DNA of 64,000 nucleotides from an uncultured Acidobacteriota bacterium. Its GTDB lineage: Bacteria > Acidobacteriota > Vicinamibacteria > Marinacidobacterales > DATDRI01. Below the pieces are notes generated by a model, which saw only the letters and a program-made list of their open reading frames with translations, had not been told where the DNA came from and ran no database searches. Below are positions 10,928 to 43,027 of the stretch, piece after piece (position 1 is the stretch's first letter; each line of letters opens with the position of its first letter). The position numbers and the translations under genes were made by a program. The stretch covers positions 56,372 to 120,371 of the forward strand of contig CAVONV010000002.1 of assembly GCA_963697355.1 (NCBI GenBank), given 5' to 3'.

Positions 10928-11028
10928 GAAAACGCCCGACCGGGTAAGACTTACATGGAGGACGTAATACTTGCGTGGGGCTTGAGACCAGAGACCGATG
11001 AGCCTGCGGATGGTGTTCGTCTAAACAT

Positions 11029-16071: not shown

Positions 16072-16560
16072 TTATTTGAGCTCGATGAGTCCGTCGTCCA
16101 TGAGACGTTTGAAGATCGAAAGGACATCCGTTTCGCTCATGGGACAAATCTTGATAATGGAACGAATGTCCCATTCGCCATTCACACGTGAGAGGACGAA
16201 TCCTTCCTGGGGGGCGAGGGTTACATTTGCAAGGTCGTCCAAAGAGAGCTTGAGTACTGGAATTCGTCCGAGGGGAATCTTGGTGGTTCGTTTGCCGTCG
16301 TCGATGAGCCGCTGGGTCTTCAAGAAGAAAAGACGAGCGTACTTGTTGTGCGGATCGATCTCGAGGGCGGCTTCAAACGCACTCATGGCTTCCGGATACT
16401 GCCCTGCATTGAACCAGACCACGCCTTGCTTCAGCCGCTCGCGAAGCTCCTCGACTTGTTGTTCGAATGGGATGTCTTCAGGTGCTTCACCGACGGTCAG
16501 TAGTCCGCGATTGTACAGTTCCAGGAGCCGCGCGGCCGCGTAGAAATCGACGGCATGCAT
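16072..16560 (-). CDS. TPR plus DUF4388-like domain protein
   Basis: The central TPR reads WFNAGQYPEAMSAFEAALEIDP. The C-terminus LSLDDLANVTLAPQEGFVLSRVNGEWDIRSII resembles DUF4388. Confidence 0.55.
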   Translation of the reverse strand: MHAVDFYAAARLLELYNRGLLTVGEAPEDIPFEQQVEELRERLKQGVVWFNAGQYPEAMSAFEAALEIDPHNKYARLFFLKTQRLIDDGKRTTKIPLGRIPVLKLSLDDLANVTLAPQEGFVLSRVNGEWDIRSIIKICPMSETDVLSIFKRLMDDGLIELK

Positions 16561-16568
16561 CTCCAGAG

Positions 16569-17174
16569 CTATCTCGGCGAGATTCTTGCCCTTTTTGCTA
16601 ACTGCAGGATGCGGCGGTCTTCCGCAGTGAGCTCCGCATCCTCGGTATCGCCTACTTCAAACGTGGTATACCGGGATGGGAAGACTTCTCGGATCCTCTG
16701 CCATTCGTCTGTTCGTCTCGCACCTTCCAATATGACACCGGTGAGGTCGAGAGGAAGCGAGATGGGAATCTTCTCCGGCAGATCATCGTCCTCGAAAACG
16801 AATTCTCCTTCGGGCCATAAAAAGCAATCGTATATGGTTTCTTCCGTTTTGAGCCTGAGGAGATCTTTCAACTCCTCGTCACTGAGGAGACCTTCGCGTA
16901 TGAGGATCTGTCCGAGCGGTTCGCGCTTACGGTCTTGCTCTATCAGAGCTCTGAAAAGATCCTCTTCGGAGATTTTCCCCGACCGAATGAGGAACTGACC
17001 CAGCGTCTCACGTGGACTATTCGATGTAGACGAGAAGAGGCGACCACTATTGAAGAAGAGCTGCTTTTCGATGGGGCCGTTTTTGAGGCGCAATGTGCCC
17101 GTCTTCAAGTTCGTCGCACACCACTGGAGAAGATCTCCAGAGTGCATGGTTTGCAGACTCCCGCTGATGCCCAT
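16569..17174 (-). CDS. DUF4388 domain protein with tandem MshEN (GspE_N-like) c-di-GMP-binding motifs
   Basis: The N-terminal DUF4388 segment reads GSLQTMHSGDLLQWCATNLKTGTLRL. Two 23-aa motifs follow, LGQFLIRSGKISEEDLFRALIEQ and LGQILIREGLLSDEELKDLLRLK, separated by a 5-aa linker. Confidence 0.65.
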   Translation of the reverse strand: MGISGSLQTMHSGDLLQWCATNLKTGTLRLKNGPIEKQLFFNSGRLFSSTSNSPRETLGQFLIRSGKISEEDLFRALIEQDRKREPLGQILIREGLLSDEELKDLLRLKTEETIYDCFLWPEGEFVFEDDDLPEKIPISLPLDLTGVILEGARRTDEWQRIREVFPSRYTTFEVGDTEDAELTAEDRRILQLAKRARISPR

Positions 17175-19550: not shown

Positions 19551-20522
19551 ATGGGTTGGAAGCAAAAGGTGTTGTTCCTGGGGTGGGTTGCGGCCCCCGG
19601 GGTTTTTTCTGTCGCCCTGTCAGCATCAGAATCCAGCCTCGGTACGCTCCTCGAGCTGGTCGATGGCGGAGGGTTCCGTATCCCGCGACTCGAGGCATCA
19701 GGAATCGTCTGTTTCCAAGACAAATTCATCGTCGCTGACGACACCGTAAACCATCTCTTCGTCTTCGACCGTGAAGGAAGGTTGTCTTACCACATCGAAT
19801 CAGATCGGTTTCCACGTGAAAAGGCGAAATTCGAGGATCTGACTTTCGACGCTTCGACGGGAACCTTCTTCGTCGTAGGGTCTCACCAAGGCTGGGATTA
19901 CGAAAACTTGGAGAGTCTGAGTGTCCTCCTCCGATTCAAACTGAAAAAGGTAGAGCAAAAGCTCACCGTCGATGAAGCATCTGTAGAGAGCCTGCCTCTT
20001 TTCAGGAGTTTTGATCAGATCGGACTGTGGAAACCGGACTCCATGAAAATAGAGGGACTCGCCTATGATTCCGCAAGAGACCATCTCTACGTGGGATTGC
20101 GCGAGCCCGTGGACCGTGCCCGCGTCTATCGGATCGACGTAGGTACCTTGGCCCGCGCGGGCCGAGATTCAGAGCCTCCTCTTCCGATAGAGGTGCTGAG
20201 TTTCGATGCCGGTAACCTTGACGGGACTCCGTTTTGTATCTCCGCTCTGCTGTGGCTCCCGACCCACCGAGGTCTCCTGATCGCCACAAGTACGGAGGAC
20301 GATATGGAACATCGATTCCTTGGGAACCGACTGTGGTTTTACTCCGAGGGCCGGTCGGTGACCCTTGTACAGGATACCTTCGACCGTGGGATGAAGGCGG
20401 AAGGTCTCGCAGTCGGTGAGGATCAACTCGTCATCGCCTACGATAACGATCAAGACGATACGGATATTCCCAGCCGGGTCCGCCTGATACCGTTGCAGCC
20501 GCTACTAGAAGGTCATACCTAG
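19551..20522 (+). CDS. Secreted hypothetical beta-propeller-like protein (phytase-like/SdiA-regulated superfamily?)
   Basis: Signal peptide, then repeated EGLAxD/LYVxxRE-like blades. Family uncertain. Confidence 0.45.
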   Translation: MGWKQKVLFLGWVAAPGVFSVALSASESSLGTLLELVDGGGFRIPRLEASGIVCFQDKFIVADDTVNHLFVFDREGRLSYHIESDRFPREKAKFEDLTFDASTGTFFVVGSHQGWDYENLESLSVLLRFKLKKVEQKLTVDEASVESLPLFRSFDQIGLWKPDSMKIEGLAYDSARDHLYVGLREPVDRARVYRIDVGTLARAGRDSEPPLPIEVLSFDAGNLDGTPFCISALLWLPTHRGLLIATSTEDDMEHRFLGNRLWFYSEGRSVTLVQDTFDRGMKAEGLAVGEDQLVIAYDNDQDDTDIPSRVRLIPLQPLLEGHT

Positions 20523-20544: not shown

Positions 20545-23370
20545 ATGGAGTTCCAACGTCCCGAAGTCGAACAACGAACCCTGGAGACCGTGCGTTTCCT
20601 CCTCGATGAGCTCGGTGGCGCGCGATTGTTTGGAGCCGTCCAGTTGCATGCTCTCATCGAGAGAGACCTGGGTCTCGGGAGCCTCGAGAGGGTGGAGCTG
20701 GTGTCTCGGTTGGAGTCGGAGTTCGGAATCGAACTCTCGGAGAGTGTTATTTCCGAGTCTGAGACCCTCAACGATCTCGTGAAGGCCATCTTGAGCACAA
20801 AAGGATCAGCTTGGGTTGGGCCGCGTCAGCAACGAGAGGCGCCGTCGGCGTTCATGCCACCGCAGGACCATCTACAAACGCTGGTGGAAGCCCTGGAATG
20901 GAGAGCCCAGGTAAATCCTTACCGAGCCCATATCTATTTTCAGGAGGAGAGAGGCGAAGAGCAGACCATCCATTATGGAGACCTTTATCGAGATGCTCTT
21001 GCCCTTGCCGGGGGATTGGCTGCAAGAGGTCTTAGGCCCCGAGACACAACCGCGATCATGCTTCCCAGCGGTCGAGATTTCTTTGTGGCCTTCGCAGGGG
21101 TGATTCTCGCCGGTGGTGTTCCGGTCCCCTTGTACCCTCCGTTCCGCTTGGACCGAATCGGAGAATACGCCAGCCGGCAGACGGCCATACTTGCCAACGC
21201 GAGAACGAAGCTCTTCATCACGCTGAGTCGTGGCCGATCGATCGGACAACTTCTACGCTCTCGTGTCCCCCAACTAGAGGGTGTGACGACGGTTGAGGAT
21301 CTCGTTTCGCAATCTGCTCCTGCCCCTTCCGTAGAAGTGCGCCCTGACGATCCGGCTTTCATTCAGTACACCTCGGGGAGTACGGGTGCTCCCAAAGGAG
21401 TCCTTCTAACGCACCGCAATCTCGTTGCGAACATTCGGGGCATCGGCGAAACACTGGAGCTTGGTGCGACCGATGTCGGGGCAAGCTGGCTGCCTCTCTA
21501 CCACGACATGGGGCTCATTGGGATGTGGTTGACGCCCCTTTACTTTGGTGTTCCCGTAGTGATTATGTCGCCCTTGACTTTCCTGGCGCGTCCCGAGCGT
21601 TGGTTATGGGCCATACACAGTCACCGCGCCACACTTTCCGCGTCTCCCAATTTTGGCTACGAGCTTTGTGTCCGAAGGATTCGCGACGAGGCTCTCGAGG
21701 GCTTGGACCTTTCGAGCTGGCGTGGAGCAATGAACGGAGCTGAGCCGGTCTCCGTAGAGACGATGGATAGGTTCCGTCGACGTTTCACGCCGATGGGATT
21801 CAAGCCAGAAGCGATGATGCCGGTCTATGGAATGGCGGAATCCTCCGTGGCTCTCGCTCTGCCACCACTTCTTCGCGGTCCGAGAATCGAGGCTCTTTCT
21901 CGGGTACCGTTCGAGACAGAGGGTCGTGCGGTGACGGCGTCCGAAGGGGACGCTCGAGCTCTTCGATTCGTTTCTGTCGGACAACCGTTGAAGGGGCATG
22001 AGGTGCGGATTGTCGACGATGAAGGGGGAGTTCTTCCTGAGCGGCGGGAAGGGGTGCTCCAGTTTCGTGGTCCATCGACAATGCAGGGCTACTACCGAAA
22101 TGCCGCTGCAACCGAAGCAGTCGCCAAGCCGGGGGGGTGGGTCGATTCAGGCGATCGCGCTTTCGTGGCGGATGGTGAAGTTTTCATCACCGGGCGGGTC
22201 AAGGACGTCGTCATCAGGGCCGGCCGGAACATATACCCTCACGAGGCCGAGGAGATCGCCGCCGATGTCGAGGGAGTGCGTCGGGGGTGTGTTGCCGCCT
22301 TTGGGGTCCGTGACGAGCGACAGGGAACGGAAAAACTCGTGGTTGTGGTCGAGACTCGAGTCGATGGAGCCCTGCATCGCCAATCAATGACAGCCGCTAT
22401 CCAAGAACGATTGGGAGAGCTGTTCGGTGCGCCTGCGGATGACGTTGTGTTAGTGCCGCCTGGCTCGGTGCCCAAGACATCGAGCGGGAAGCTGAGACGT
22501 TCGACTACGAAAGAGCGGTATCTGGAAGGAAAGCTCGTCGGCGGAACGGACAATCGAAGGTTCGTTCTGATCCAAGTGACGATTCTCGATGTATTCGACC
22601 GTCTGTGGCGAGCGGCTCGGGGCTTCGGCCGATGGGTCTATGGAATCTACGCCGTTCTTCTATCACTGGCCATCGTCGTTCCCGTTTGGTTCGCGGCACT
22701 TGCGTGTCCTTCCAGGAGGCTCGTGGGACGCATCGTGCGGTTTGGGGCGCGGGCCTATCTTTTTTTGAGCGGGTGCCGGCTCGAGGTCGTGGGACTCGCA
22801 CATCTGAAGGACCCAGCGGAGCCACCCGTCATTTTCGTCTCGAACCATGCCAGCTATCTGGATCCTCTTCCGATCATTGCGGGATTACGCCACGACTTCG
22901 CTTTCATCGTTAAGCGGGAGGCCGGTAGTTGGCCCGTTGTTGGGACTTTCATTCGTCGACTCGGTTACCTGCTCGTTGACCGTATCGATCCCAAGGAAAG
23001 CGTCGAGAGCGCGGAGGAAATCACGGCTGCATTTCATCAAGGCCGCTCTGTGTTCTTCTTTGCCGAAGGCACCTTCACTCGGGTCACTGGCCTCAGGCCG
23101 TTCAAGTTGGGTGCTTTCAAGTTGGCGGCCGAAACCGGGCGCCCCATCGTGCCACTCGCGCTGAAGGGGACCAGGAGGTGGCTGCGCGATGGAACGTGGC
23201 TTCCGCGGCGGAGCGATTTGCAGCTGGTCATCGATGAGCCTCTCCATGCCACGTCATCGTCTTTGTCGGAGGTCGTGCGTCTAAGGGATGAGGTCGCCCA
23301 AGTGATTTCACGACAGGTTGGAGAGCCGCGCCTCGACCTCGTAGCGGCAGGCTTGCCGGTGGCGGAATGA
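20545..23370 (+). CDS. Tridomain fusion of an acyl-carrier (PP-binding) domain, a fatty acyl-AMP ligase and a PlsC-type lysophospholipid acyltransferase
   Basis: N-terminal DLGLGSLERVELV carrier motif. AMP-binding core YTSGSTGAPKGV and GDRAF...GRVKD. TM segment. C-terminal FVSNHASYLD (HX4D) and FAEGT acyltransferase motifs. Confidence 0.8.
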   Translation: MEFQRPEVEQRTLETVRFLLDELGGARLFGAVQLHALIERDLGLGSLERVELVSRLESEFGIELSESVISESETLNDLVKAILSTKGSAWVGPRQQREAPSAFMPPQDHLQTLVEALEWRAQVNPYRAHIYFQEERGEEQTIHYGDLYRDALALAGGLAARGLRPRDTTAIMLPSGRDFFVAFAGVILAGGVPVPLYPPFRLDRIGEYASRQTAILANARTKLFITLSRGRSIGQLLRSRVPQLEGVTTVEDLVSQSAPAPSVEVRPDDPAFIQYTSGSTGAPKGVLLTHRNLVANIRGIGETLELGATDVGASWLPLYHDMGLIGMWLTPLYFGVPVVIMSPLTFLARPERWLWAIHSHRATLSASPNFGYELCVRRIRDEALEGLDLSSWRGAMNGAEPVSVETMDRFRRRFTPMGFKPEAMMPVYGMAESSVALALPPLLRGPRIEALSRVPFETEGRAVTASEGDARALRFVSVGQPLKGHEVRIVDDEGGVLPERREGVLQFRGPSTMQGYYRNAAATEAVAKPGGWVDSGDRAFVADGEVFITGRVKDVVIRAGRNIYPHEAEEIAADVEGVRRGCVAAFGVRDERQGTEKLVVVVETRVDGALHRQSMTAAIQERLGELFGAPADDVVLVPPGSVPKTSSGKLRRSTTKERYLEGKLVGGTDNRRFVLIQVTILDVFDRLWRAARGFGRWVYGIYAVLLSLAIVVPVWFAALACPSRRLVGRIVRFGARAYLFLSGCRLEVVGLAHLKDPAEPPVIFVSNHASYLDPLPIIAGLRHDFAFIVKREAGSWPVVGTFIRRLGYLLVDRIDPKESVESAEEITAAFHQGRSVFFFAEGTFTRVTGLRPFKLGAFKLAAETGRPIVPLALKGTRRWLRDGTWLPRRSDLQLVIDEPLHATSSSLSEVVRLRDEVAQVISRQVGEPRLDLVAAGLPVAE

Positions 23371-23394
23371 TGAAATCGGGCGCGTTCGCCCGAC

Positions 23395-24180
23395 ATGGGG
23401 GTTAGTATGATGTACTCGTTTTGGAGGCGACGAATTGATGCGGGCCGGGCCCTCACGAGATATCGGGGCGCCCCTTGGCTAGAAGACAAACGAGTGTTCA
23501 GAAGAGCCGCAATATTGAGCGCAGTCCTTGCTTTGGGGCCCATGGGACATCAAGGGAGTCGAGCGATGGAAGAAGAACCGACGATCCGCACCATCGAGCT
23601 CCAAGGGTGCATGCTTCACACTCTCGTTGCCGGCCCGGCCGACGGCTTTCCTGTATTGCTGCTTCACGGTCGACGGTTTCATTCCGGAACCTGGCTCGAG
23701 ATAGCGACTTATGGAACACTGGCCAGTCAGGGATACCGCGTCGTGGGCGTCGACCTTCCAGGCTACGGCCGCTCAGAGAAGAGCGAGGTTCCGTGGGACC
23801 GATTCCTCGCGGAGCTCATTCCCGAGCTCGGCATGGGCAAACCGGTCATCGTCGCACCTTCGATGAGCGGTGGTTATGCGTTTGCGCTCTTGATGGAACA
23901 CCCCGAATTTGCTTCGGGCTTTGTTGGCGTGGCGCCCGCCTGGGCCAAAGATCACGAAAGCGGGATTCAGAACATCAAAGTACCGACGCTCCTCCTCTGG
24001 GGTGAGAACGACACCATTTCGCCAGTGTCCTTGGGCGAGAAATTGATGGGCTTGATCGAGGGCAGCCGGTTGGTGGTCCTAGACGGTGCAAGTCATCCTT
24101 GCTATCTCGATCGTCCGGACGAGTTTCACCAAACCCTGCTCGAGTTTTTGGAAACCATTCGCTCCGCGAACAAGCGATAG
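23395..24180 (+). CDS. Alpha/beta hydrolase
   Basis: LLLHGRRFHSGTW and the GxSxG nucleophile elbow PSMSGGYAF. Start could instead be ATG 23566. Confidence 0.75.
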   Translation: MGVSMMYSFWRRRIDAGRALTRYRGAPWLEDKRVFRRAAILSAVLALGPMGHQGSRAMEEEPTIRTIELQGCMLHTLVAGPADGFPVLLLHGRRFHSGTWLEIATYGTLASQGYRVVGVDLPGYGRSEKSEVPWDRFLAELIPELGMGKPVIVAPSMSGGYAFALLMEHPEFASGFVGVAPAWAKDHESGIQNIKVPTLLLWGENDTISPVSLGEKLMGLIEGSRLVVLDGASHPCYLDRPDEFHQTLLEFLETIRSANKR

Positions 24181-24210
24181 AAGACTAGAGGGCTGTCCCC
24201 TTAGTCTTTT
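24181..24210. terminator. Hairpin plus short T-run between convergent genes
   Basis: aagacta-gagggctgtcccct-tagtctt followed by tt. It overlaps the UbiA-like stop and shares the GGCTGTCCCC motif with 12913-12926. Confidence 0.35.
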
Positions 24211-25100
24211 GTTAGTAGGGCGGCTAGGAGGGTAAGCGCGAGTGCCGTGTTGGTGGCCAGGATCCAAACGACGTTCGACGCGAGCGCCGGTATCGGGATG
24301 GGCTCATCGGGTTTGGAAAAAGCCCAGCGAAGAGGCTGAGCGAGTAACAAAGAGGGAATCACGGCGACGAGGCAGGACCAAGGCAACCAATCGAAAACGA
24401 TCGCTGTGACGATGGCTCCCGGAACCGAGACTGCGGCCAAGGCGTAGATGAGAGCTGCCGCTTTCCGGCCCAGCAAGATAACGAGATTCCGTCTTCCTCC
24501 TTTGCGATCGGCTTCCTCGTCGGGGAACTCGTTCAAGAGAAGCAAATTGAAGGTCATGAAGAATGCGGGAACCGATGCGGCGATGGCGACCTGGCCGAGC
24601 GTCCCACCTTGAATCATTGCCGTCCCCACGACGGGTAGGGCGCCGAGTCCAAGGCCGGCGGCCATCTCACCAATACCTATGCGGGCGAAAAGGTCGGTGT
24701 AGGCCAGAACACAAACGGCCCCGGTAAGGAAAAGGGGCAGAAGGAACCATCCCACGTCAATGAGGAACCAGACGCCGCAAGCTGCGCCGACGGCAGCCGC
24801 AACGTAGCCGACGGTCCAGGCCGTGCGCTGGCTCAAGTGGCCGGCTGGAAGCGTTCCACTCCCACCGGAGAACGGTGTCCGTTCCGTGTGAAGATCAATC
24901 CCCGTTCTCATGTCACTTGCTTCGTTGAGGGCGTTGACGGCGATGTGCAGAGCGACCAAACCCACGAGCGCTATGATCGTGGCCGACCACCGGAAACTTC
25001 CTTCATAGGCCGACGCGGCTGCCCCTGCCGCGACGAGGGTCACGGATAGCGCTAGAAAAGGTGCACGGGTCACACTGAGAAGATGTTGAATGGCTGCCAT
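24201..25100 (-). CDS. UbiA-family prenyltransferase-like integral membrane protein
   Basis: 8-9 TM helices. Asp-rich motifs NALNEASDMRTGID and NEFPDEEAD. Confidence 0.55.
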   Translation of the reverse strand: MAAIQHLLSVTRAPFLALSVTLVAAGAAASAYEGSFRWSATIIALVGLVALHIAVNALNEASDMRTGIDLHTERTPFSGGSGTLPAGHLSQRTAWTVGYVAAAVGAACGVWFLIDVGWFLLPLFLTGAVCVLAYTDLFARIGIGEMAAGLGLGALPVVGTAMIQGGTLGQVAIAASVPAFFMTFNLLLLNEFPDEEADRKGGRRNLVILLGRKAAALIYALAAVSVPGAIVTAIVFDWLPWSCLVAVIPSLLLAQPLRWAFSKPDEPIPIPALASNVVWILATNTALALTLLAALLTKD

Positions 25101-25290
25101 AACTGCCTCTTATCAAGAACTCAAGCCCGCCTCCGTCGGTGATGCCGATTCGTCGCCACCGACTTCGGCGAGGCCTCGCCGAAGCCGTTGGTTCGCAATC
25201 TCGAGCACCAACGGCGGAGGCGGGAATTCAAGAACTCAAGAACTCAAGAATTCAAGAACTCGAGAGTCGAGAGATTGTAGCGATCTTGCG
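25101..25290. repeat. Composite imperfect palindrome containing CTTCGGCGAGGCCTCGCCGAAG and four CAAGAACT octamers
   Basis: It lies in the divergent promoter region between the UbiA-like gene and galK. The core hairpin is the 22-bp perfect palindrome cttcggcgagg/cctcgccgaag. It is homologous to segments at 55951-56000 and 56205-56225. Confidence 0.5.
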
Positions 25291-25348
25291 CGACAATAAA
25301 GAATGATAACATTTGCGGTTCCGTGGAAGTCTGAAACCTGCAAAGAAG

Positions 25349-26590
25349 ATGTCTTCGATACCCGATAGCCGTCGTCTTCGAGCTTTGGAGAGGACGTTCA
25401 AGGTGTCCTTTGGGTCTGCCAGAGGAGAGCGCGTGGCTAGGGCCCCCGGCCGAGTCAATTTGATCGGGGATCATACCGACTATAACGGCCTTCCGGTCTT
25501 TCCCATGGCTCTCCAACGAGACATCACGATCCTTTTTCGTCCACGAGAAGATGCTACGGTTCGTATCGCCAACGTGGATTCGCGCTTCCCTTCTTTTTCC
25601 GTCGTGCTCGACCAGCAGATCGAACCCAGCACCCGGGGTGATTGGTCGAACTACGCTCGGGCCGCGGGGCAAGCGCTCAGCCGATCTCATGGACTGCTGA
25701 AGGGCTTCGATGGCGTTGTCTCGGGAAACATACCCGTCGCAGCGGGACTTTCCTCCTCCTCTGCCATGGTCGTGGCAGTAGCCATGGCGCTCATTGATGT
25801 CAACTCCATCTCCATCAAACCGCTTCAGCTCATGAGTCTAATGGCTCGTGCCGAACATTACACAGGGGCCGAAGGAGGCGGGATGGATCAAGCCATCTGT
25901 TTGGGCGGGGTCTCGAACGCGGCTATCAAGATCGAATTCGACCCCTTGAGACTGACGCCGGTACCTGTGCCGAAGAAGTGGTGTTTCATCGTTGCCTTTA
26001 GCGGGCTCCGGGCCGAGAAGTCGGGCGATGCCCGTGAGGCCTATAACAGCCGGGCCCGCCAATCGAGGGCAGCCATAGAGACGCTTTCTCAGCGCTTTCC
26101 CATAGCCCGCAGCTATCGAGAGCTCATTGCCGACACCCGTACCGACGAGTTGCTTGCGACCGCGCAGGACCACCTCGACGATCTCCTGTTCCGCCGGTTT
26201 CGCCACGTCGTCACGGAAGCGGCTCGTGTTGATGAAGCCGGCCGAGCCATGGAGGATGGCGATATTCGGGAGTTCGGCCGCTTGATGAGCGCCTCGCACA
26301 GAAGTCTGAGGGATGACTTCGAGGTGAGTTGCTCGCAGCTGGATGAGCTCGTCGAAGCCGCCATGGATGCCGGCGCGGAAGGTGCTCGGTTGACCGGGGC
26401 TGGGTTTGGTGGTTGCATCGTTGCTTTGTGCTCTTCGGACCAGGTGCCCGCTTTCATGTCGTTCATTGCGGAAAACTACTACCAGCAACGAGGTCGAACG
26501 GAGTCGCTCGCGGACGACGTTCTTGTGGCCGAGCCCTCGCCTGGCGCCTCCGTAACCCCGTTTCGATTGACGCCGTACATGGCTCAATGA
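25349..26590 (+). CDS. galK: Galactokinase
   Basis: GRVNLIGDHTDYNGLPVFPMAL signature and GHMP kinase PVAAGLSSSSA motif. Confidence 0.85.
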   Translation: MSSIPDSRRLRALERTFKVSFGSARGERVARAPGRVNLIGDHTDYNGLPVFPMALQRDITILFRPREDATVRIANVDSRFPSFSVVLDQQIEPSTRGDWSNYARAAGQALSRSHGLLKGFDGVVSGNIPVAAGLSSSSAMVVAVAMALIDVNSISIKPLQLMSLMARAEHYTGAEGGGMDQAICLGGVSNAAIKIEFDPLRLTPVPVPKKWCFIVAFSGLRAEKSGDAREAYNSRARQSRAAIETLSQRFPIARSYRELIADTRTDELLATAQDHLDDLLFRRFRHVVTEAARVDEAGRAMEDGDIREFGRLMSASHRSLRDDFEVSCSQLDELVEAAMDAGAEGARLTGAGFGGCIVALCSSDQVPAFMSFIAENYYQQRGRTESLADDVLVAEPSPGASVTPFRLTPYMAQ

Positions 26591-28110
26591 CTTTTCTGCC
26601 ATCCGTCGACATCGCGATACTCGTCCTCTATGTCCTTGCCGTCGTGGCCTACGGCGCGGGCTTCTTTCGAAGGAGTAGGACGCCTCGAGGCTTCACGGCT
26701 GCGGGTGGGGCCATCCCCGGTTGGGCCGTGGGTCTTTCTCTGTTTGGGACATACTTGAGCAGCAACACGTTCTTGGGTGTTCCCGGCAAAGCCTACGGAA
26801 CAAATTGGAACTCTTTCGTCTTCAGTTTGTCGTTACCGTTCGCGGCTTGGATTGCGGCGAAGTACTTCGTGCCTTTTTATCGGGAGCATGGAGAGATCTC
26901 GGCCTACACTCATCTGGAACGCCGATTCGGACGGTGGGCACGCACTTACGCCATGGTGTGCTACTTGTTGACGCAACTTGCCCGCATCGGTTCCATTCTC
27001 TTTGGAGTCGCTTTGGCCCTTGGTGCGATGACGGGCTGGTCGCCGGCCGTCATCATCATGGCGACCGGATTACTCGTCACGCTATATACACTTCTCGGTG
27101 GAATCGAGGCTGTCATTTGGACCGACGTCGTCCAAAGTGTCATCCTCTCCGTTGGCGCGTTGGTTGTCGTTGTCCTTCTCGTCGTCGGTATGCCGGAAGG
27201 ACCGGGTCAACTCTTGGAGATCGCCTCGGCCTCGGGGAAATTCAGCTTGGGTAGTGCCGCCTTGGACTTCACAACGTCGACGGTATGGGTGGTCTTTCTT
27301 TACGGCCTATTCACGAATCTCAACAATTTCGGTATAGATCAGAGCTTCGTTCAACGCTACCACACGGCACGAAGCGACAGCGAGGCTCGTCGCTCCGTTT
27401 GGTTTGCCGCCGTCTTGTACATCCCCATCTCGCTTCTGTTCTTCTTCATCGGGTCGGGACTCTTTTCCTATTACGAGGCGCGACCGGATCAGAAGTTGGA
27501 CTTGGAGCAGGCGGTGGTTGTGCCCGCGGAGCAGGGCCATGCCCAACCGACGCCCGAGGAGCTTGGAGATCGTGTCTTTCCTCATTTCATCGCGAACCAG
27601 CTTCCACCTGGTGCGGCAGGTCTTCTAATGGCGGCCCTTTTCGCGGCGGCCATGAGCAGCATCGATACCAGTCTCAACAGCTCGGCGACCGTTATCTTGT
27701 CCGACCTCTACCCGAGTCGTGGGCGATCGGTGAGTGATCGTGAGGCGATGCGGGTTCTCTATATTGGTACAGTTGTCGTGGGATTTCTCGGTACGGGTAC
27801 GGCTCTGGCTATGATGGGGGTGACGAGCGTTCTTGATGCATGGTGGACCCTTTCCGGCATCTTCGCCGGCGGCATGCTCGGACTCTTCCTTCTTGGAATG
27901 ATATCGAAGTGGGCAAAGACACCCGCGGCCGTCACGGGTGTTGTGGCCGGTCTTGCCGTCATCATTTGGATGACGCTATCGCCTCGTCTCCCCGAGGCCT
28001 CAGTTCTTCGAAGCCCCTTTCACGCCAATATGATCATCGTCGTAGGCACCCTCACCATATTCCTCATCGGAATGCTGGTTTCTCCAAAGAGGTCGCGGAC
28101 CGAGACCTGA
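26587..28110 (+). CDS. Sodium:solute symporter (SSS family)
   Basis: ATGA overlap with galK. About 13 TM helices with SSS-type motifs GxxxAAxMSSxDTxL. Confidence 0.85.
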   Translation: MTFLPSVDIAILVLYVLAVVAYGAGFFRRSRTPRGFTAAGGAIPGWAVGLSLFGTYLSSNTFLGVPGKAYGTNWNSFVFSLSLPFAAWIAAKYFVPFYREHGEISAYTHLERRFGRWARTYAMVCYLLTQLARIGSILFGVALALGAMTGWSPAVIIMATGLLVTLYTLLGGIEAVIWTDVVQSVILSVGALVVVVLLVVGMPEGPGQLLEIASASGKFSLGSAALDFTTSTVWVVFLYGLFTNLNNFGIDQSFVQRYHTARSDSEARRSVWFAAVLYIPISLLFFFIGSGLFSYYEARPDQKLDLEQAVVVPAEQGHAQPTPEELGDRVFPHFIANQLPPGAAGLLMAALFAAAMSSIDTSLNSSATVILSDLYPSRGRSVSDREAMRVLYIGTVVVGFLGTGTALAMMGVTSVLDAWWTLSGIFAGGMLGLFLLGMISKWAKTPAAVTGVVAGLAVIIWMTLSPRLPEASVLRSPFHANMIIVVGTLTIFLIGMLVSPKRSRTET

Positions 28111-28161
28111 GTGTGGAGGTTCCCCTCGGCCTTCTCCTCACCCGGAAAGGACGAAGAGCCT

Positions 28162-31161
28162 CTATTGGCCCAGTTCTTTGCGACAACGTCGGATGTGCTC
28201 GTTCTGCTCGCGTTCGCCCGGTGCGTTAGTTGCCCCCTCTTGCCAGGCTTTGTGTGCTTCCTCGGTACGGCCGAGAGCCGCGAGCGCTTTTCCCTTCCAA
28301 AAAAGAGCACGGGCTTCTTGGGGTTGGGAAGGCCTTCCGACGTGTAAGTTGTCCGGATAGGATAGTGCGCGCTCAAAGTCAGCGAGCGCCTCTTTTTGGT
28401 TTCCACGTTCGAGCTCGAGAATACCCCGCTCGATATGAGCCGTGGAGAAAAGGCCCCAAGCGTTTCGATCACCTTCCCAGTTGGAGAACGTCGCTGATTC
28501 GAGGAGCTGGATCGCGTCGTCGTATCGTTTCGCTTCGCTATAAGTTCTTGCTAGTAGAGACGTCACGTCGGCCCGGCGTCTGTTCTCAATGGGCATGGTC
28601 TCGAGGAGTTGGATAGCCGCGTGCTTGTCGTTCCGCTCAACTTGAATGCGAGCCAGATCGCGGTAGAGCACTTGGTCGTTGGGGCGTGCCGCTACCGCTT
28701 TCCGGTAGGCCTCGGCGGCGAGTGACAGGTCCCTTCCGTGATTCCAATGATACAAACCCAAGTTGCGATGGGCCACACTCAACGTTGGGTTCTTTTCCAC
28801 TGCGGATGTCCATTGCGAAACAGCGTCGTCGATCCGTCCCAAGCCTGCGTAGAGGTTGCCGAGGTAGAGGTGGGCCCTTCCGTCTTCAGAATTTTGCTCG
28901 AGAGCGTACTGAAGGATCTTGATGGTTTCCGGGCGCGACGGAAAGACGTAGTCGCTCGCAAGAGAAGAGGCCAGGTCGAGAGCCCGTTTCGCCTCGACGT
29001 CGTTACCCAAGAGCGATTCGTAGTAGGCCAAGTAGTAATGAGGCAGCGGTCGTTTTGTTCCTTCAGGGACATCATCACATAGAGTGGCTGACAGCAATCG
29101 TACGGCTTCGCCTGGAAGTTCGAGCTCTCCGAAGAACAAAACGAGCTCCAAGAAGGTGAACTCGTCTTCTCCAACGAAACGGCGTGCTTCAACGGCGAAT
29201 CGGTCCAGAGGGGTCGCGCCCAAAAGCGCGAGAACGGCTCGAGGTACTAGCCGAGTCGTACCGCTAGCGATGGTCTCATTGCAAAGCCTCTCGGCCTCCT
29301 CTCGGTGGCCTGACGCATAGAGGGCAACGAGCATCTGTTCAAAGAGCCGGATTCGGTCTGTGCCACCTTCAGTGTATCCAGCTCGGAATGCTTCGAGCGC
29401 TCCCTTGGGGTCGCCTTGGCGCATCTTGGCCCTTCCTACCAAGCTGTAGCCCAATGCGGTCGTTCCCTGGAGCCTCGTCGCCTGGTAGCCCATATGAACA
29501 GCCTTATCGAGTTCCCCCTGATGGAGCTTCACGACGCCTGAGAGGTACCACGCCAGTCCGTGACGGGGATCCCTGACCAATACCTGTTCCAGATGTTCGA
29601 CCGCGGAGGGGTGACGGCCTGCTTCACCATCGAGGACTGCCATAGAGAAGTGGGAGGCGGTGTGCCCGCCATCTTGTTCCAAAGCTCTTTCATACCACTC
29701 CCGCGCTTGAGAGCGATTCATTTGACGATCGAGCTTCTGTCCTCGGAGGTAGGTTTCCTCGACAGGCAGTGAGGCTCGCTCGTTGATGGCAGGCTCTTTC
29801 GGGATCCCAACTTCCGGGACTTCGAGCGGCGACCTGTAAGAAGCGAGGGCTCTATCCTTGCCATCCTTGATGGTGAGAAGGAAAGATGCCTCGCCAAGGT
29901 CCTCCAATTGAACGGTAACAGGTTCATCTGGAGTCAGGTCGACAGTCTTCAAACGGGAATACCCCTCGCCGCCACTGATTTCGATGTTAGCCCCGGGATA
30001 GGCGGCGGTCGATAAGATTCTCAGCTCCAGGTCTCGGCCTCGTGCGATCCGCTCCACCGCGATATCCTTCGTCGCGTACTCGAAACCTTGACCGAGTCCG
30101 AAGACGGGGCACCACCATTCCCGCCAGCGGACCTCTTGGCCCGGATACAGCATGCCGTAGTCTGCTTGTGTAGGTAGGGGGCCACTTTGTACCTCGATAT
30201 AGGGACCGTCTTCGTCGGTCAATACGGATTGGCTGGCGAGTCCGGACTCGGAGTTCCCCCAAGTCCAAGCTTTCTTGCCGGGCGTGACGTGGTGGTTGGC
30301 GACTTGGATGATGCCGTAGTCCCTATCGACATCGTATGCGCCAAAGAAGTCGAACTCACAATCGTGAGCGAATATGGACGTGGGATCGGGATAGTTCTTG
30401 AGCCAAGTGAGATCGCGGCCCTCGTGGATCGGCCAAGTAAAGAAATTCTCACCTTCGTGGTCGGTGCCGAGGGTCATGGGGTAGATGAAGCGCGTCCCTT
30501 CACGGTTGGGAAAGGCGGTGTTGTTCCAGAAGTAGTAAGAATGCGTACCGTCCGTGGGGTTGGATATCGAGAACTGTTCGTCGAGATAGGCACGACCGGG
30601 ATGAAGCGTCAAGCGTACCGTCCATAGGGTCCGAAAATTCATCTCCGTGTTCCCGATGACGAGAGATGCAGAGCCGTCGGGGTTGTCGACCGTCACGACG
30701 TCGACCGGAGAATAACTCGTTACCGTGTGACCGGTGGGCCCGCGGTTCCATTCGATCCCGCCCGAAATCCAGGCGCCTCGAAGGGCAATCAATCCCGGCT
30801 TGATCACTTGGTTGCGATAGAACATTTCCTCGCCGCGTCGCTTGTCGTAGACGGATTGAATCCGTCCGCCTATTTCCGGAAGACACATGACACGCAAGTA
30901 CTCGTTCTCTAGAAAGGCCGCCCTGTAGGTTCGGTCCTCCAATGTCGACGAGAGGTTGTCCTGCATCGTGTAGGGATAGATGAGGGATTCCTCCAATTCG
31001 TAGAATCGAGGATTGATGTCGTCGGGGTACAAGCCGTAAGTCGGGATGACCACGTCTTCGAACCAAGCTCGAACCGGTGCATCGGTCGCGGCGGCGAGTT
31101 GGGGTTGTCCCAATGCGCAAGCGACAACAAGAAAGCAGAAGATGGGTGTAGGGCAACGCAT
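28162..31161 (-). CDS. DUF5107 domain plus TPR-repeat protein, secreted
   Basis: Signal peptide. N-terminal domain of about 370 aa matching the DUF5107-type pattern. At least 10 TPR units follow, and the ORF is about 1000 aa. Confidence 0.65.
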   Translation of the reverse strand: MRCPTPIFCFLVVACALGQPQLAAATDAPVRAWFEDVVIPTYGLYPDDINPRFYELEESLIYPYTMQDNLSSTLEDRTYRAAFLENEYLRVMCLPEIGGRIQSVYDKRRGEEMFYRNQVIKPGLIALRGAWISGGIEWNRGPTGHTVTSYSPVDVVTVDNPDGSASLVIGNTEMNFRTLWTVRLTLHPGRAYLDEQFSISNPTDGTHSYYFWNNTAFPNREGTRFIYPMTLGTDHEGENFFTWPIHEGRDLTWLKNYPDPTSIFAHDCEFDFFGAYDVDRDYGIIQVANHHVTPGKKAWTWGNSESGLASQSVLTDEDGPYIEVQSGPLPTQADYGMLYPGQEVRWREWWCPVFGLGQGFEYATKDIAVERIARGRDLELRILSTAAYPGANIEISGGEGYSRLKTVDLTPDEPVTVQLEDLGEASFLLTIKDGKDRALASYRSPLEVPEVGIPKEPAINERASLPVEETYLRGQKLDRQMNRSQAREWYERALEQDGGHTASHFSMAVLDGEAGRHPSAVEHLEQVLVRDPRHGLAWYLSGVVKLHQGELDKAVHMGYQATRLQGTTALGYSLVGRAKMRQGDPKGALEAFRAGYTEGGTDRIRLFEQMLVALYASGHREEAERLCNETIASGTTRLVPRAVLALLGATPLDRFAVEARRFVGEDEFTFLELVLFFGELELPGEAVRLLSATLCDDVPEGTKRPLPHYYLAYYESLLGNDVEAKRALDLASSLASDYVFPSRPETIKILQYALEQNSEDGRAHLYLGNLYAGLGRIDDAVSQWTSAVEKNPTLSVAHRNLGLYHWNHGRDLSLAAEAYRKAVAARPNDQVLYRDLARIQVERNDKHAAIQLLETMPIENRRRADVTSLLARTYSEAKRYDDAIQLLESATFSNWEGDRNAWGLFSTAHIERGILELERGNQKEALADFERALSYPDNLHVGRPSQPQEARALFWKGKALAALGRTEEAHKAWQEGATNAPGEREQNEHIRRCRKELGQ

Positions 31162-31165
31162 AACG

Positions 31166-31873
31166 TCAATCCTTCATGAAAACGAGATCACCGAAGGCTT
31201 CCGGAACATGGAAGCTACGTCCCGGTGGCGGCGACCAAGCGGCGAGAATGACATCGGTGTCGGGATCCGTCTTGCCGCCTGGCCGCTCAATGCGAAACAG
31301 GTTGAATCGCCAGTTGTCTCCGGACTCCGGCGGCAAGGAAACATGGGTGGTGGAGGGAAGTGACCGAAATCCACCCCAGGGAAGATAAGCCACAGCGGTC
31401 CATCCGACCGACTTTCCTTCGCTGTTGCGAAGAAGTGCTGTGCGGCTCTCGAGTCCTTCTATGTTCCAGGATAGGTCCATCTCTTTTGGCTTTGCCGAGA
31501 GGACCCAGACGTCACAAACGACATTGGCGGGGTTGATTTCGACCTCGGCGTAGTGGGTGCCTTTGCGGCTTGGATCCAAGAAGATCTCTACGACCTCTTC
31601 CTCCCAGAGAGGAGCGTCACGATCCGTATAGGTGTACCAAGGGTCTACGTCTCTAACGTCGAAACGAACGTAGAGGCCCTGATCGGTCCAAAGTGCCCGA
31701 AACTCCGTGATGAGCTCCGGGGGACCGAAGCCAGCGCTCTCGGCGGCGCTCCAGACCTCATCATGCGATTCAATCAGACTCGAGTGCGATGACGTCGTGG
31801 CTGCGACTTGATATGCGGGTTTTGTTGTTGAGGAGAAAAGCCCCAGTATCAAAAGGAGTAGGATGTGATTCAT
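31166..31873 (-). CDS. CBM9-like (DOMON-like) carbohydrate-binding domain protein, secreted
   Basis: ATG 31873 gives the signal peptide MNHILLLLILGLF. Motifs YAEVEINP and FHVPEAFG. There is a 4-nt gap to the downstream DUF5107 gene. Confidence 0.6.
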   Translation of the reverse strand: MNHILLLLILGLFSSTTKPAYQVAATTSSHSSLIESHDEVWSAAESAGFGPPELITEFRALWTDQGLYVRFDVRDVDPWYTYTDRDAPLWEEEVVEIFLDPSRKGTHYAEVEINPANVVCDVWVLSAKPKEMDLSWNIEGLESRTALLRNSEGKSVGWTAVAYLPWGGFRSLPSTTHVSLPPESGDNWRFNLFRIERPGGKTDPDTDVILAAWSPPPGRSFHVPEAFGDLVFMKD

Positions 31874-31984
31874 AGATATCAACCGGATCGAGACGCCAGA
31901 TGTTAGATCGGACTGATCTTGTTGATCAATAAGCATCTCATTGAAGGAGAAAGGAGAGAGGAGGAAGGAGAAAGACAACGGGCT

Positions 31985-32130
31985 CGATTACCCGGCGGGT
32001 TTGACGTGGGCGGGTGGCAAGTAGCGACTGCTTGACTGCCCGCCTACGCGGTATTTGATTTCTACTCAGCTTCGGCGGGTCCGCTGTAGCCTTGGCGTAG
32101 GCGGACTCGACTGCTTGACCGCTTGCATTG
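31985..32130. repeat. Copy of the mosaic intergenic repeat (GACTGCTTGACTGCC and CTTCGGCGGGTCCGC modules)
   Basis: gcgactgcttgactgcccgcctacgcgg ... cttcggcgggtccgctgtagccttggcgtaggcggactcgactgcttgaccgc. These modules are shared with 50.6-50.75 kb. Confidence 0.4.
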
Positions 32131-32178
32131 ATATACTTCGAGACCAAACCTGATGAAGAACAAGGAAGGACACTCGTT

Positions 32179-34308: not shown

Positions 34309-34332
34309 AGATCAGACAAGGAAGCGAGATCC

Positions 34333-37371: not shown

Positions 37372-37374
37372 GTC

Positions 37375-43023: not shown

Positions 43024-43027
43024 GACA

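Follow-up and report, generated by a model that had tools for sequence, protein, structure and literature searches.

A carrier-FAAL-acyltransferase fusion protein of Acidobacteriota as a predicted membrane-anchored enzyme for acyl activation and transfer

A single gene in the window (the whole stretch of 64,000 nucleotides analysed here) encodes a protein in which an acyl carrier (ACP) domain, a FAAL (fatty acyl-AMP ligase) domain, a helix pair and a PlsC-type acyltransferase (LPLAT) domain follow one another (Table 1). This fusion is probably a stand-alone, inner-membrane-anchored enzyme that combines activation of an acyl chain with its carriage and its transfer. Every catalytic residue is conserved, the domains are identified, their fold is predicted, the family is widely distributed and conserved partner genes are absent; what we infer is in which direction the acyl group flows, that the carrier is used in cis, how the protein lies in the membrane and what its acceptor is.

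Table 1. Fusion gene, its domains and its neighbours (nucleotide positions in the window)
Feature	Residues	Position	Strand	Basis
DUF6929-like secreted beta-propeller gene		19551..20522	+	Pfam DUF6929, 31.7 bits; N-terminal hydrophobic segment
ACP-FAAL-helix pair-LPLAT fusion gene, complete	941 aa	20545..23370	+	ATG start; end includes stop codon; ORF list, Pfam/NCBIfam
N-terminal acyl carrier domain	1-85	20545..20799	+	PF00550; NCBIfam ACP models, 1e-8
Flexible tether, carrier to ligase	86-112	20800..20880	+	No regular secondary structure; pLDDT lower than elsewhere in the N-terminal part (AF2)
Fatty acyl-AMP ligase domain	113-662	20881..22530	+	NCBIfam FAAL PRK09192, 461 bits
Helix pair, predicted membrane anchor	663-745	22531..22779	+	AF2 secondary structure and hydropathy
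PlsC-type lysophospholipid/glycerol-phosphate acyltransferase	746-930	22780..23334	+	PF01553
Alpha/beta-fold hydrolase		23395..24180	+	Abhydrolase_1/6 (Pfam)
G+C-rich short hairpin		24187..24202	.	20-nt gap between hydrolase and UbiA; read as terminator-like on both strands
UbiA-superfamily membrane prenyltransferase		24201..25100	-	PF01040, 99.4 bits; convergent with hydrolase

The fusion gene and its domains

The fusion gene is real, as the original prediction had it, and full-length homologs of its product share 47-94% identity with 97-100% query coverage. An assembly chimera, one of the two objections that the prediction had raised against itself, was ruled out because at least 120 protein clusters, independent of one another and on contigs of up to 9.2 Mb, show the three-domain architecture of about 940 residues. 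The same architecture is common to these full-length clusters and to 298 clusters at 50% identity, the family being found in Acidobacteriota, Coxiellaceae, Legionellales and Thiotrichales. FAAL-lysophospholipid-acyltransferase fusions have been mentioned in passing by two FAAL surveys (PMC8460268; PMC12820801), and neither a functional test of such a fusion nor biochemical or genetic data on any family member were found in the literature searched. The fusion thus belongs to a large, already catalogued family and is not rare, so that the word "unusual" in the original prediction does not hold.

The Pfam scan returned PP-binding, AMP-binding and Acyltransferase matches within the one ORF, which bears out the predicted tridomain reading. 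The PP-binding match (PF00550) spans residues 40-82 with 32.7 bits against a gathering score of 20.8. The predicted carrier motif LGLGSLERVEL was located at residues 42-52 (nt 20668-20700) and contains the phosphopantetheine-attachment site Ser46 (nt 20680-20682). In the AF2 model the carrier folds into a bundle of helices, and Ser46 marks the N-terminal start of helix 46-60. A missing serine had been the other possible objection; Ser46 proved invariant in 37 of 37 and 52 of 52 aligned relatives, where the N-terminus of helix II carries it within a (G/D/S)SL motif. G45-S46-L47 is invariant in the 52 aligned sequences, and gammaproteobacterial members of the family show the canonical IDSL at this site. 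The tether that follows is conserved in length, being 27-31 residues long in 33 of 37 relatives, and not in sequence (identity only 13%). No phosphopantetheinyl transferase was detected among the window ORFs scanned, a point against the proposed enzyme.

Judged by its sequence, the adenylation domain is a true FAAL. The Pfam AMP-binding match covers residues 117-517 (240.9 bits). The domain as a whole holds the P-loop TSGSTGAPKG at 276-285, the catalytic-lysine loop PKTSSGK at 643-649, the residues W315/P317/M322 and F370 and the FAAL-specific helix region 343-350. In the PDB sequence search the ligase matched E. coli FAAL (3pbk) at 5e-90 as compared to about 1e-37 for CoA ligases, and the top matches, from 5e-90 to about 1e-47, were all FAALs or FAAL-like loading or adenylation domains; the AF2 model of the fusion protein superimposed on 3pbk with a Foldseek TM-score of 0.91. 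The residues by which E. coli FAAL rejects CoA and shapes its alternative pocket (W224, P226, M231, F279, P107 and helix T252-R258; PMC8460268) correspond to W315, P317, M322, F370, P199 and helix 343-349, as mapped via ungapped stretches of the PDB sequence alignment, and all of them are invariant or nearly so. The domain resembles stand-alone and didomain FAALs, namely those of E. coli (3PBK) and L. pneumophila (3KXW), that of the cyanobacterial olefin synthase (7R7E) and FadD32, in fold, adenylation motifs, FAAL-specific helix, blocked canonical CoA pocket and proline-guarded alternative pocket. Known FAALs, however, serve an ACP that is either separate or fused at the C-terminus and that supplies PKS/NRPS lines (PMC11837247), whereas here the ACP is N-terminal and a membrane lipid acyltransferase lies downstream.

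Between ligase and transferase, the AF2 model shows a long helix (671-720) followed by a second one (724-742). The transmembrane segment of the original prediction corresponds to a single strongly hydrophobic helix at about residues 700-725, the C-terminal part of the long helix, with a Kyte-Doolittle maximum of 2.5 at residues 702-715. Most relatives have a hydrophobic helix in the same region (median hydropathy 2.12, range 1.13-3.03), and the pair is predicted to be a membrane anchor leading into the transferase.

The Acyltransferase match (PF01553) covers residues 748-873 with 92.7 bits. The HX4D box noted originally lies within NHASYLD at residues 767-773 (nt 22843-22863), FAEGTFT was found at 839-845, and N767, H768, D773, R813, E841 and T843 are invariant in the aligned relatives. 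Across the Acidobacteriota, Coxiellaceae, Legionellales and Thiotrichales relatives, Ser46, the adenylation motifs, the FAAL CoA-rejection residues and HX4D/EGT are all invariant or nearly so. The closest solved relative is T. maritima PlsC (5KYM), a canonical 1-acyl-sn-glycerol-3-phosphate acyltransferase, which aligned over about 200 residues (E = 7.7e-19) with HX4D and EGT conserved and with helices preceding the catalytic core. PlsC has a two-helix membrane anchor at its N-terminus. It differs in being a free-standing protein of about 250 residues that uses diffusible acyl-ACP or acyl-CoA, whereas the fusion domain is joined to its own acyl supply and scores 91.8 bits on the AGPAT model TIGR00530, under the cutoff of 102.95.

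That shortfall, together with matches of 54-55 bits to two models of the lyso-ornithine-lipid enzyme OlsA, bears on the nature of the acceptor. The chemistry of activation, carrying and transfer might be kept while the acceptor is something other than a lyso-glycerophospholipid, such as an OlsA-like lyso-aminolipid, a glycolipid or another hydroxylated membrane molecule; PF01553 enzymes include the aminolipid O-acyltransferases OlsA and SalA (PMC11631085), and the family retains a carrier of its own, a frequent trait of specialised lipid pathways. We consider this unlikely, since AGPAT/PlsC accounts for both the model with the highest score and the only solved relative, and no OlsB-like N-acyltransferase or aminolipid gene adjoins the fusion in any locus examined.

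Neighbouring genes

The original prediction had described a self-contained locus of fusion, hydrolase and prenyltransferase. In such a three-gene module a fatty acid would be freed or a lyso-lipid made by the hydrolase, re-acylation would fall to the fusion, and an isoprenoid part would be added or built by the prenyltransferase. The genes are indeed adjacent, with gaps of 24 nt (fusion to hydrolase) and 20 nt (hydrolase to UbiA). An alpha/beta hydrolase does lie downstream, with an intact triad (Ser156 in SMSGG, Asp in GENDT, His in ASHP), although its elbow is an SxSxG variant and not the literal GxSxG that had been announced; its true start may be downstream of 23395, because homology to its ortholog in L025 begins at nt 23557. 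The convergent UbiA-like gene was likewise present on the minus strand, its product carrying the motifs NxxxDxxxxxD and DxxxD and reaching only 86 bits on MenA models against a cutoff of 264.

We compared ten related genomes or contigs (L025-L034) and 24 distant loci (L001-L024). Of the ten related loci, just the closest (L025, 62% identity) has hydrolase and UbiA after the fusion, and this arrangement is absent from the other nine (L026-L034) and from all 24 distant loci; a hydrolase ortholog was likewise seen only in L025. In three other Acidobacteriota contigs (L035-L037), UbiA orthologs (65-66% identity) are translationally coupled to a PMT_2 GT-C glycosyltransferase gene, with neither hydrolase nor fusion gene nearby. 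In the window the UbiA gene is convergent and forms a transcript of its own, set off from the hydrolase by a hairpin, the hairpin coming only from a consensus scan that gave 15 sites in the region against 6.5 expected. In L029 and L030 the fusion directly abuts ABC-2/Wzt/CTP-transferase/Mfd genes, whereas in the window some 19 kb separate the fusion from the orthologs of these genes (67-74% identity), and therefore hydrolase and UbiA lie in a lineage-specific intervening segment. The two genes are thus not partners of the fusion; for want of conserved co-occurrence the three-gene module is largely refuted, and we hold it to be very improbable.

The only neighbour conserved across the window's clade of 57-62% identity is the upstream, co-directional DUF6929-like gene, 22 nt from the fusion gene. 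L025-L028 and L032-L034 have its ortholog immediately upstream of the fusion, whereas L029-L031 and L001-L024 lack it. The AF2 model of the protein (pLDDT 90.8) gave only generic NHL/YjiK-like propeller matches.

Elsewhere in the family, an MFS transporter gene is adjacent to the fusion in three Coxiellaceae loci and one Acidobacteriota locus, and a cyclopropane-fatty-acyl-phospholipid synthase gene in one locus. These neighbours lend weak support to a lipid-salvage role and echo the lplT-aas pairing, in which the MFS flippase LplT is the partner of E. coli Aas (PMC11416262). None of the MFS neighbours is an LplT ortholog, and no such transporter occurs near the fusion gene or elsewhere within the window.

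Comparison with ElbD and Aas and the proposed acyl flow

Myxococcus xanthus ElbD, too, is a single protein that unites an acyl-CoA-synthetase-like (A) domain with an ACP in cis and with an acyltransferase of the AGPAT-like kind (PMC9131029, PMC9426513). The fusion might accordingly be a reductase-less ElbD relative that supplies or attaches acyl chains in a specialised pathway, e.g. for alkyl-ether or membrane-spanning lipids of Acidobacteria, instead of serving general salvage. ElbD-like homologues without the reductase are described from other phyla, animal pathogens among them (PMC9131029), ElbD homologs have been reported in Acidobacteriota, and the fusion family is present in Acidobacteriota, Coxiellaceae and Legionellales. 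Still, we find this improbable. ElbD starts with an N-terminal FAR-type reductase, whereas the fusion protein has no NAD_binding_4/FAR domain in Pfam or NCBIfam; three papers give the ElbD order as reductase, synthetase, carrier and AGPAT, with the split variant breaking between Re and A, so that, by published description, the ElbD carrier comes after the ligase and that of the fusion before it. The ElbD gene belongs to the elbA-E operon and its product is soluble on purification, neither of which is true of the fusion with its hydrophobic helix. No ElbB/ElbE-like gene or reductase was found among the annotated ORFs of the window or the annotated neighbours in related loci, and an exhaustive search with the C-terminal module returned no protein of about 1,400 residues among the best 150 matches.

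E. coli Aas is likewise a single membrane-associated polypeptide that couples adenylate-forming fatty-acid activation to an HX4D acyltransferase of PF01553, and passes the acyl group via an acyl-ACP thioester to a lyso-lipid (PMC11416262). The reversed domain order that had been predicted was borne out: in Aas the transferase (1-203) precedes the synthetase (204-719), whereas the fusion runs carrier, ligase, helix, transferase. Aas also lacks both a carrier domain, using free holo-ACP, and a predicted transmembrane helix (PMC11416262). The fusion ligase scores 461 bits on the FAAL model, whereas the Aas-type models NF006386 and NF005291 give it 186 and 146 bits and give the transferase 60 and 40 bits. 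A permuted Aas ortholog was rejected, given the fit of the ligase to the FAAL model and only 16 bits for the transferase on the E. coli-type Aas model NF005959. Most likely, Aas-like chemistry arose here from an independent fusion, with a FAAL in place of an Aas-type synthetase, the carrier in cis and the order reversed.

Whether the transferase draws on the carrier in cis bears on the acyl flow. The carrier occupies the extreme N-terminus, so that about 700 residues of sequence separate it from the transferase, and Aas uses free ACP and appears to self-associate (PMC11416262). The FAAL-ACP part could hence pass its acyl group to another enzyme or to a dimer partner, with the transferase taking ordinary acyl-ACP or acyl-CoA and the fusion merely co-localising the activities at the membrane. 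This, too, seems doubtful to us, because the three domains are kept together across phyla with a tether of conserved length, and no conserved partner gene could take the acyl chain. That all full-length representatives are fused, at about 910-1020 residues, argues that the domains act as one unit. Some caution is called for about such a unit. In FAAL-ACP didomains the ligase normally comes first and the carrier second (PMC11837247), so the atypical N-terminal position counts against our best explanation, and the acyltransferase domain may not work as predicted, since acyltransferase activity was not detected in vitro for ElbD (PMC9131029).

The conserved catalytic residues and the structure predicted for the protein are still read most economically as the chemistry of the original prediction, namely activation of a free fatty acid, loading in cis and transfer to a lipid acceptor. 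The FAAL domain would convert a free long-chain fatty acid and ATP into an acyl-adenylate and, as in other FAALs, would not hand it over to coenzyme A. The acyl group would then form a thioester on the phosphopantetheine arm at Ser46 of the protein's own carrier, swinging on the tether of about 27 residues. The helix pair (671-742) would position the PlsC-type domain at the cytoplasmic face of the membrane, where the HX4D dyad could move the acyl group from the tethered carrier to the free hydroxyl of a putative lyso-glycerolipid (lysophospholipid or lysophosphatidic acid). The net logic would be that of the two-step E. coli Aas, and free fatty acid would be salvaged directly into membrane lipid, bypassing the CoA and AcpP pools.

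The fusion family

The ORF described by the original prediction was found, on the + strand, at the position where it had been placed, and a Pfam scan bore out the three domains that had been read from it. Protein searches retrieved at least 120 clusters with the same Pfam domains, mostly of 926-964 aa, whose identity to the query was 47-94% and whose alignments covered 97-100% of it. These relatives were drawn from many independent assemblies, some of them on contigs of 2-9 Mb, and the closest among the matches listed (P0001, 94% identity) comes from a separate assembly. Base composition was flat throughout the fusion region, and a query of public assemblies with the exact sequence of the fusion protein returned no identical entry. 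An assembly chimera, which had been named as a possible artefact, is excluded by the occurrence of the same architecture in these clusters from independent assemblies, and the fusion ORF is real.

With the last 301 residues of the fusion as query, HMMER was also run exhaustively against 1.84 billion representative proteins and matched 298 representatives at E <= 1e-30. Among the best 150 of these 298, all full-length proteins measured 910-1022 aa and carried the module at their C-terminus, the others being fragments. Named carriers of the fusion belong to the Vicinamibacteria and other Acidobacteriota, the Bryobacteraceae, Solibacteraceae, Coxiellaceae, Legionellales and Thiotrichales. Judging by named homologs of the fusion gene and of its neighbours, the window itself, in which no rRNA or tRNA gene was found, would stem from an acidobacteriotal genome, probably a Vicinamibacteria-like one. 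Fusions that join a FAAL (fatty acyl-AMP ligase) to a lysophospholipid acyltransferase (LPLAT) have been listed among 'unique domain organizations' (Patil et al., 2021; PMC8460268). No occurrence of LPLAT fusions was found in the supplements of Patil et al., and the literature yielded passing mentions only, with no functional characterisation of any family member. The window protein adds one further member to a large fusion family that is catalogued but functionally uncharacterised, so the novelty of the finding for the window itself is modest, low to moderate.

Coordinates of the fusion gene, its domains and the neighbouring genes discussed in the text (domains in residues, genes in nucleotides)
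Feature	Sequence	Coordinates	Strand	Remarks
Fusion gene	window	20545-23370	+	941 aa, ATG start
PP-binding (PF00550)	fusion protein	40-82		32.7 bits, gathering score 20.8
AMP-binding	fusion protein	117-517		240.9 bits (Pfam)
Acyltransferase (PF01553)	fusion protein	748-873		92.7 bits
Putative 979-aa ORF	window	291-3230	-	no Pfam match at E <= 1e-5
PMT_2 gene	window	3037-4878		
PatA_N/DUF4388-TPR gene	window	16078-17174	-	apparent frameshift near nt 16590
DUF6929-like beta-propeller gene	window	19551-20522	+	secreted
Alpha/beta hydrolase gene	window	23395-24180	+	downstream of fusion
UbiA-family gene	window	24201-25100	-	membrane protein
Segment between fusion and older neighbours	window	23371-42240		about 19 kb
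ABC-2/Wzt/CTP-transferase-like/Mfd block	window	42247-48351		67-74% identity to orthologs
Atg22-like MFS gene	L010 (Acidobacteriota)	8744-10147		overlaps fusion gene
Atg22-like MFS gene	L007 (Coxiellaceae)	8946-10235		immediately downstream of fusion
Atg22-like MFS gene	L014 (Coxiellaceae)	8820-10124		immediately downstream of fusion
Atg22-like MFS gene	L002 (Coxiellaceae)	10635-11885	-	1.8 kb from fusion
Cyclopropane-fatty-acyl-phospholipid synthase gene	L002 (Coxiellaceae)	8839-9978		directly adjoins fusion
UbiA-PMT pair	L035 (Acidobacteriota)	3316-5900		
UbiA-PMT pair	L036 (Acidobacteriota)	3698-5900		
UbiA-PMT pair	L037 (Acidobacteriota)	3253-5903		

Ligase, carrier and transferase domains

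A FAAL is defined biochemically by the formation of an acyl-AMP that is then passed to a holo-ACP and not to CoA. The ligase domain was inspected for the motifs of the ANL core (P-loop T/SSGTTGxPKG, YGxTE, SGD, GRxKD and a C-terminal catalytic Lys) in two alignments, one of 37 sequences from Acidobacteriota, Coxiellaceae, Legionellales and Thiotrichales and a second one of 52. The core residues T276-K284, Y428-G429-x-A431-E432, D537, R551/K553/D554 and K644/K649 were invariant in both. The top NCBIfam model for the fusion was the 'fatty acyl-AMP ligase' PRK09192, with 461 bits, under its full-length cutoff of 600, whereas the Aas-type models NF006386 and NF005291 gave 186 bits (cutoff 1221) and 146 bits (cutoff 1349) on the whole protein. 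The best PDB matches, from 5e-90 to about 1e-47, were FAALs or FAAL-like loading/adenylation domains: the E. coli FAAL (EcFAAL, 3PBK) was the top match, and the cyanobacterial olefin-synthase FAAL, the L. pneumophila FAAL, FadD32, FadD23 and FadD28 were also in the top set. CoA ligases appeared at about 1e-37 or weaker, and Foldseek aligned the model of the fusion with 3PBK at a TM-score of 0.91.

In EcFAAL, the bulky residues W224, M231 and F279 fill the canonical pocket and so reject CoA, a FAAL-specific helix (T252-R258) lies at the pocket entrance, and an alternative pocket, which serves the phosphopantetheine arm, is guarded by the prolines P226 and P107 (Patil et al., PMC8460268). Mapped through ungapped stretches of the PDB-match alignment, these elements correspond to W315, M322, F370, residues 343-349, P317 and P199 of the fusion, each of which is either invariant within the family or conserved to 90% or more. 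Residues 418-520, which take in the stretch from the YGxAE motif to the next conserved strand, align with EcFAAL with only one gap, of one residue; the fusion therefore runs co-linearly with a known FAAL over the part where FAALs have their specific insertion. Judged by each of the sequence and fold criteria tested, the ligase domain is predicted to be a full FAAL and not an Aas-type or FadD-type enzyme, in agreement with the original prediction.

The carrier motif LGLGSLERVEL occupies residues 42-52, with the codon of Ser46 at nt 20680-20682. This Ser, on which the assignment of a phosphopantetheine carrier hung, was invariant in the 37-sequence and 52-sequence alignments and was kept even in sequences without a precomputed PP-binding match. 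The family motif around it is DLG(L/I)(G/D/S)SL(E/G)R(V/A)EL, and gammaproteobacterial members carry the canonical IDSL. In the AlphaFold2 model of the fusion (mean pLDDT 82.7, pTM 0.75) the carrier is a small bundle of helices 5-22, 26-31, 46-60, 67-71 and 75-84, and Ser46 opens helix 46-60, which is the canonical N-terminus of helix II. The domain has both features of PF00550, namely the bundle and the Ser of a (D/G)S(L/I) motif at the start of helix II. In the same model an unstructured segment (residues 85-112) follows the carrier; this tether shows 13% identity across the family, yet its length stays within 27-31 residues in 33 of the 37 members, a conservation of length and not of sequence that is expected of a swinging arm. 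No phosphopantetheinyl transferase was found among the window ORFs scanned.

The sole strongly hydrophobic stretch of the fusion was located at about residues 700-725, where a TM segment had been proposed. In the AlphaFold2 model a long helix (671-720) and then a second one (724-742) lead into the catalytic core of the transferase, and the hydrophobic part of this helix pair was found in most relatives. The predicted HX4D motif is present as NHASYLD (residues 767-773), and N767, H768, D773, R813, E841 and T843 were invariant in the 37 and 52 relatives. With H768-x4-D773, the motif II Arg R813 and the motif III E841-G-T843, the sequence marks the domain as a putative PlsC/LPLAT acyltransferase. 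The C-terminal 261 residues alone matched best the generic AGPAT-domain model TIGR00530 (91.8 bits, cutoff 102.95), PRK15018 scored 39.7 bits on the transferase domain (cutoff 501), and the only solved relative was T. maritima PlsC (5KYM, 7.7e-19). The invariant catalytic residues together with the PlsC/AGPAT matches make the fold and the catalytic machinery secure, but do not thereby secure the assignment of the acceptor. Two models for OlsA, which acts on lyso-ornithine lipid, gave 54-55 bits against a cutoff of 300, and we judge an acceptor other than a glycerophospholipid to be unlikely, albeit the least unlikely of the rival readings.

Gene neighbourhood of the fusion

The original prediction had joined the fusion, the downstream alpha/beta hydrolase and a UbiA-like prenyltransferase into one self-contained lipid-tailoring locus. 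The hydrolase is present, but its elbow reads SMSGG and not literally GxSxG as had been claimed; a plausible acid motif (GENDT) and a histidine motif (ASHP) follow it. The UbiA-family membrane protein is likewise encoded there, convergently with the hydrolase and with a hairpin within the 20-nt gap. All window neighbours were compared by tblastn with 34 loci, and the precomputed Pfam contexts of ten related genomes were inspected. The trio occurred in one of the ten related genomes or contigs and in none of the 24 distant loci: hydrolase and UbiA lie downstream of the fusion only in L025, the closest genome (62% identity), and L026-L028 and L032-L034 (57-59% identity), L029-L031 (50-53%) and every distant locus lack both. 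In L029 the fusion is directly followed by ABC-2, Wzt, CTP-transferase-like and Mfd genes, and in L030 the same genes come after a single intervening Peptidase_M2 gene. The gene order in these two relatives indicates that about 19 kb now separates the fusion from its older neighbours in the window lineage. A three-gene module has, in our estimate, hardly any probability left. The locus-level reading is wrong and the adjacency is an accident of gene order; the enzyme-level interpretation was reasonable and is now better supported. The separating segment holds the hydrolase, UbiA, a galactokinase, a sodium:solute symporter, DUF5107-TPR, CBM9, penicillin amidase, GH123 and subtilase (S8 peptidase) genes and more, and carbohydrate- and peptide-processing genes are abundant in it.

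We also considered the hydrolase and UbiA as an independent pair (e.g., MenH/MenA) and rejected it. In three other Acidobacteriota contigs, UbiA orthologs of 65-66% identity lie across the stop codon of a gene that encodes a PMT/PMT_2 GT-C glycosyltransferase, and neither a hydrolase nor a fusion gene was found near them. MenA models gave 86 bits on the window UbiA against a cutoff of 264, and the JGI family name is MenA; the UbiA-PMT pairing points to a system of polyprenyl-phosphate-linked glycosyl donors and away from MenA. In the window this pairing is broken, and its own PMT_2 gene is not an ortholog of the partner in the three contigs. The start of the window PMT_2 ORF is overlapped by about 190 nt, on the opposite strand, by the putative 979-aa ORF.

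Codons 1-54 of the hydrolase (23395-23556) have no counterpart in its L025 ortholog, which likewise starts with a hydrophobic segment. The N-terminal RR-plus-hydrophobic stretch of the window protein, FRRAAILSAVLALG, could be a signal or Tat-like peptide, and if the hydrolase is exported, its compartment differs from that of the cytoplasmic ligase domain.

Upstream of the fusion, a block comprising ECF sigma and anti-sigma factor, NHL propeller, PatA_N/DUF4388, HNH, SLOG/LDcluster4 and PilZ genes was present in all ten related genomes and represents ordinary lineage synteny of functionally unrelated genes. To the PatA_N/DUF4388-TPR gene the 370-aa L025 ortholog aligns in two pieces, residues 1-200 in frame -3 and 199-369 in frame -2; either the sequence or its assembly contains an error here, or the gene is a pseudogene. 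The DUF6929-like gene, co-directional and 22 nt upstream of the fusion, was the sole neighbour kept throughout the window clade (57-62% identity) and was absent in more distant relatives. Its product was modelled with a pLDDT of 90.8, has 27 invariant residues and found only generic NHL/YjiK-like structural neighbours. A role as a lipase or phospholipase feeding the fusion was discarded, since AlphaFold2 and Foldseek revealed no more than a secreted beta-propeller of generic type.

The single lipid-flavoured neighbour that recurred in other clades was an Atg22-like MFS transporter, present in four loci (one from Acidobacteriota and three from Coxiellaceae) with 27-28% identity between the two phyla. 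This adjacency recalls lplT-aas, but no LplT model of NCBIfam matched, so it lends weak support; the transporters were rejected as LplT orthologs, the analogy being at superfamily level only.

Comparison with Aas and ElbD, and the proposed acyl-transfer route

In Aas the transferase precedes the acyl-ACP synthetase, and the enzyme synthesises acyl-ACP and then acylates a lysophospholipid (PMC11416262). The fusion has the opposite order (carrier, ligase, transferase), as had been predicted, and carries its carrier in cis, whereas Aas has no fused carrier. The E. coli-type Aas model NF005959 gave 16.3 bits on the transferase domain alone against a cutoff of 886, and the linkage of Aas to LplT has no parallel here, with no LplT-type MFS gene within the window. 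We conclude that the fusion follows an Aas-like logic without being a member of the Aas family, and that it arose independently, with the fused carrier making it self-sufficient.

ElbD, the ether-lipid enzyme of Myxococcus xanthus, shares with the fusion its content of ACS, ACP and AGPAT, and reductase-less ElbD-like proteins have been noted in other phyla (PMC9131029). However, ElbD has an N-terminal FAR/thioester-reductase and the fusion gave no NAD_binding_4 match; the carrier lies on the opposite side of the ligase, judging from the ElbD order listed in descriptions by other papers; and ElbD purifies as a soluble protein, whereas a membrane helix is predicted in the fusion. The gene for ElbD is accompanied by elbB (HAD) and elbE (NAD-dependent epimerase/dehydratase), whereas the annotated ORFs of the window and the annotated neighbours at related loci included nothing of the kind. 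Among the best 150 of the 298 matches to the C-terminal module, none was as large as ElbD (about 1,400 aa). A split ElbD reductase upstream of distant family members was rejected as well: no reductase recurred when the neighbour genes were clustered, and a 324-aa upstream ORF extension in the distant locus L001 contained no Pfam domain. As judged from domain make-up, gene neighbours and protein size, a reductase-less ElbD-like role in specialised lipids seems to us quite improbable.

The route that we propose builds on three domains that are catalytically intact, as judged by conserved residues, and always fused, on the length-conserved tether, on the membrane helix and on the FAAL-type features of CoA rejection. 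The FAAL domain would adenylate a long-chain fatty acid in free form, Ser46 of the same polypeptide would take up the acyl group on its phosphopantetheine arm, and the PlsC-type domain, at the cytoplasmic face of the membrane, would transfer it to a lyso-glycerolipid. We consider this overall scheme probable, though by no means assured, and its weakest link is the acceptor. That the carrier does not serve the transferase in cis is an alternative to which we give little credence.

If the inferred mechanism is right, one polypeptide would take a free fatty acid all the way into a membrane lipid without drawing on the CoA or AcpP pools. Family members abound in soil Acidobacteriota and occur in Coxiellaceae and Legionellales as well, and the assigned function would cover thousands of entries labelled 'AMP-binding protein' or '1-acyl-sn-glycerol-3-phosphate acyltransferase'. 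It would also bear on FAS-II-bypassing fatty-acid scavenging beyond model organisms, and the family overall is a worthwhile and cheap experimental target. A bolder and doubtful reading is that the family represents a widespread, self-sufficient route from fatty acids to membrane lipids without CoA or housekeeping ACP, replacing Aas/LplT or FadD in Acidobacteriota and in intracellular Legionellales/Coxiellaceae, maybe with a non-canonical acceptor or with dedicated fatty acids (host-derived or unusual branched ones). If true, it would constitute a third, unrecognised bacterial mode of incorporation of exogenous fatty acids.
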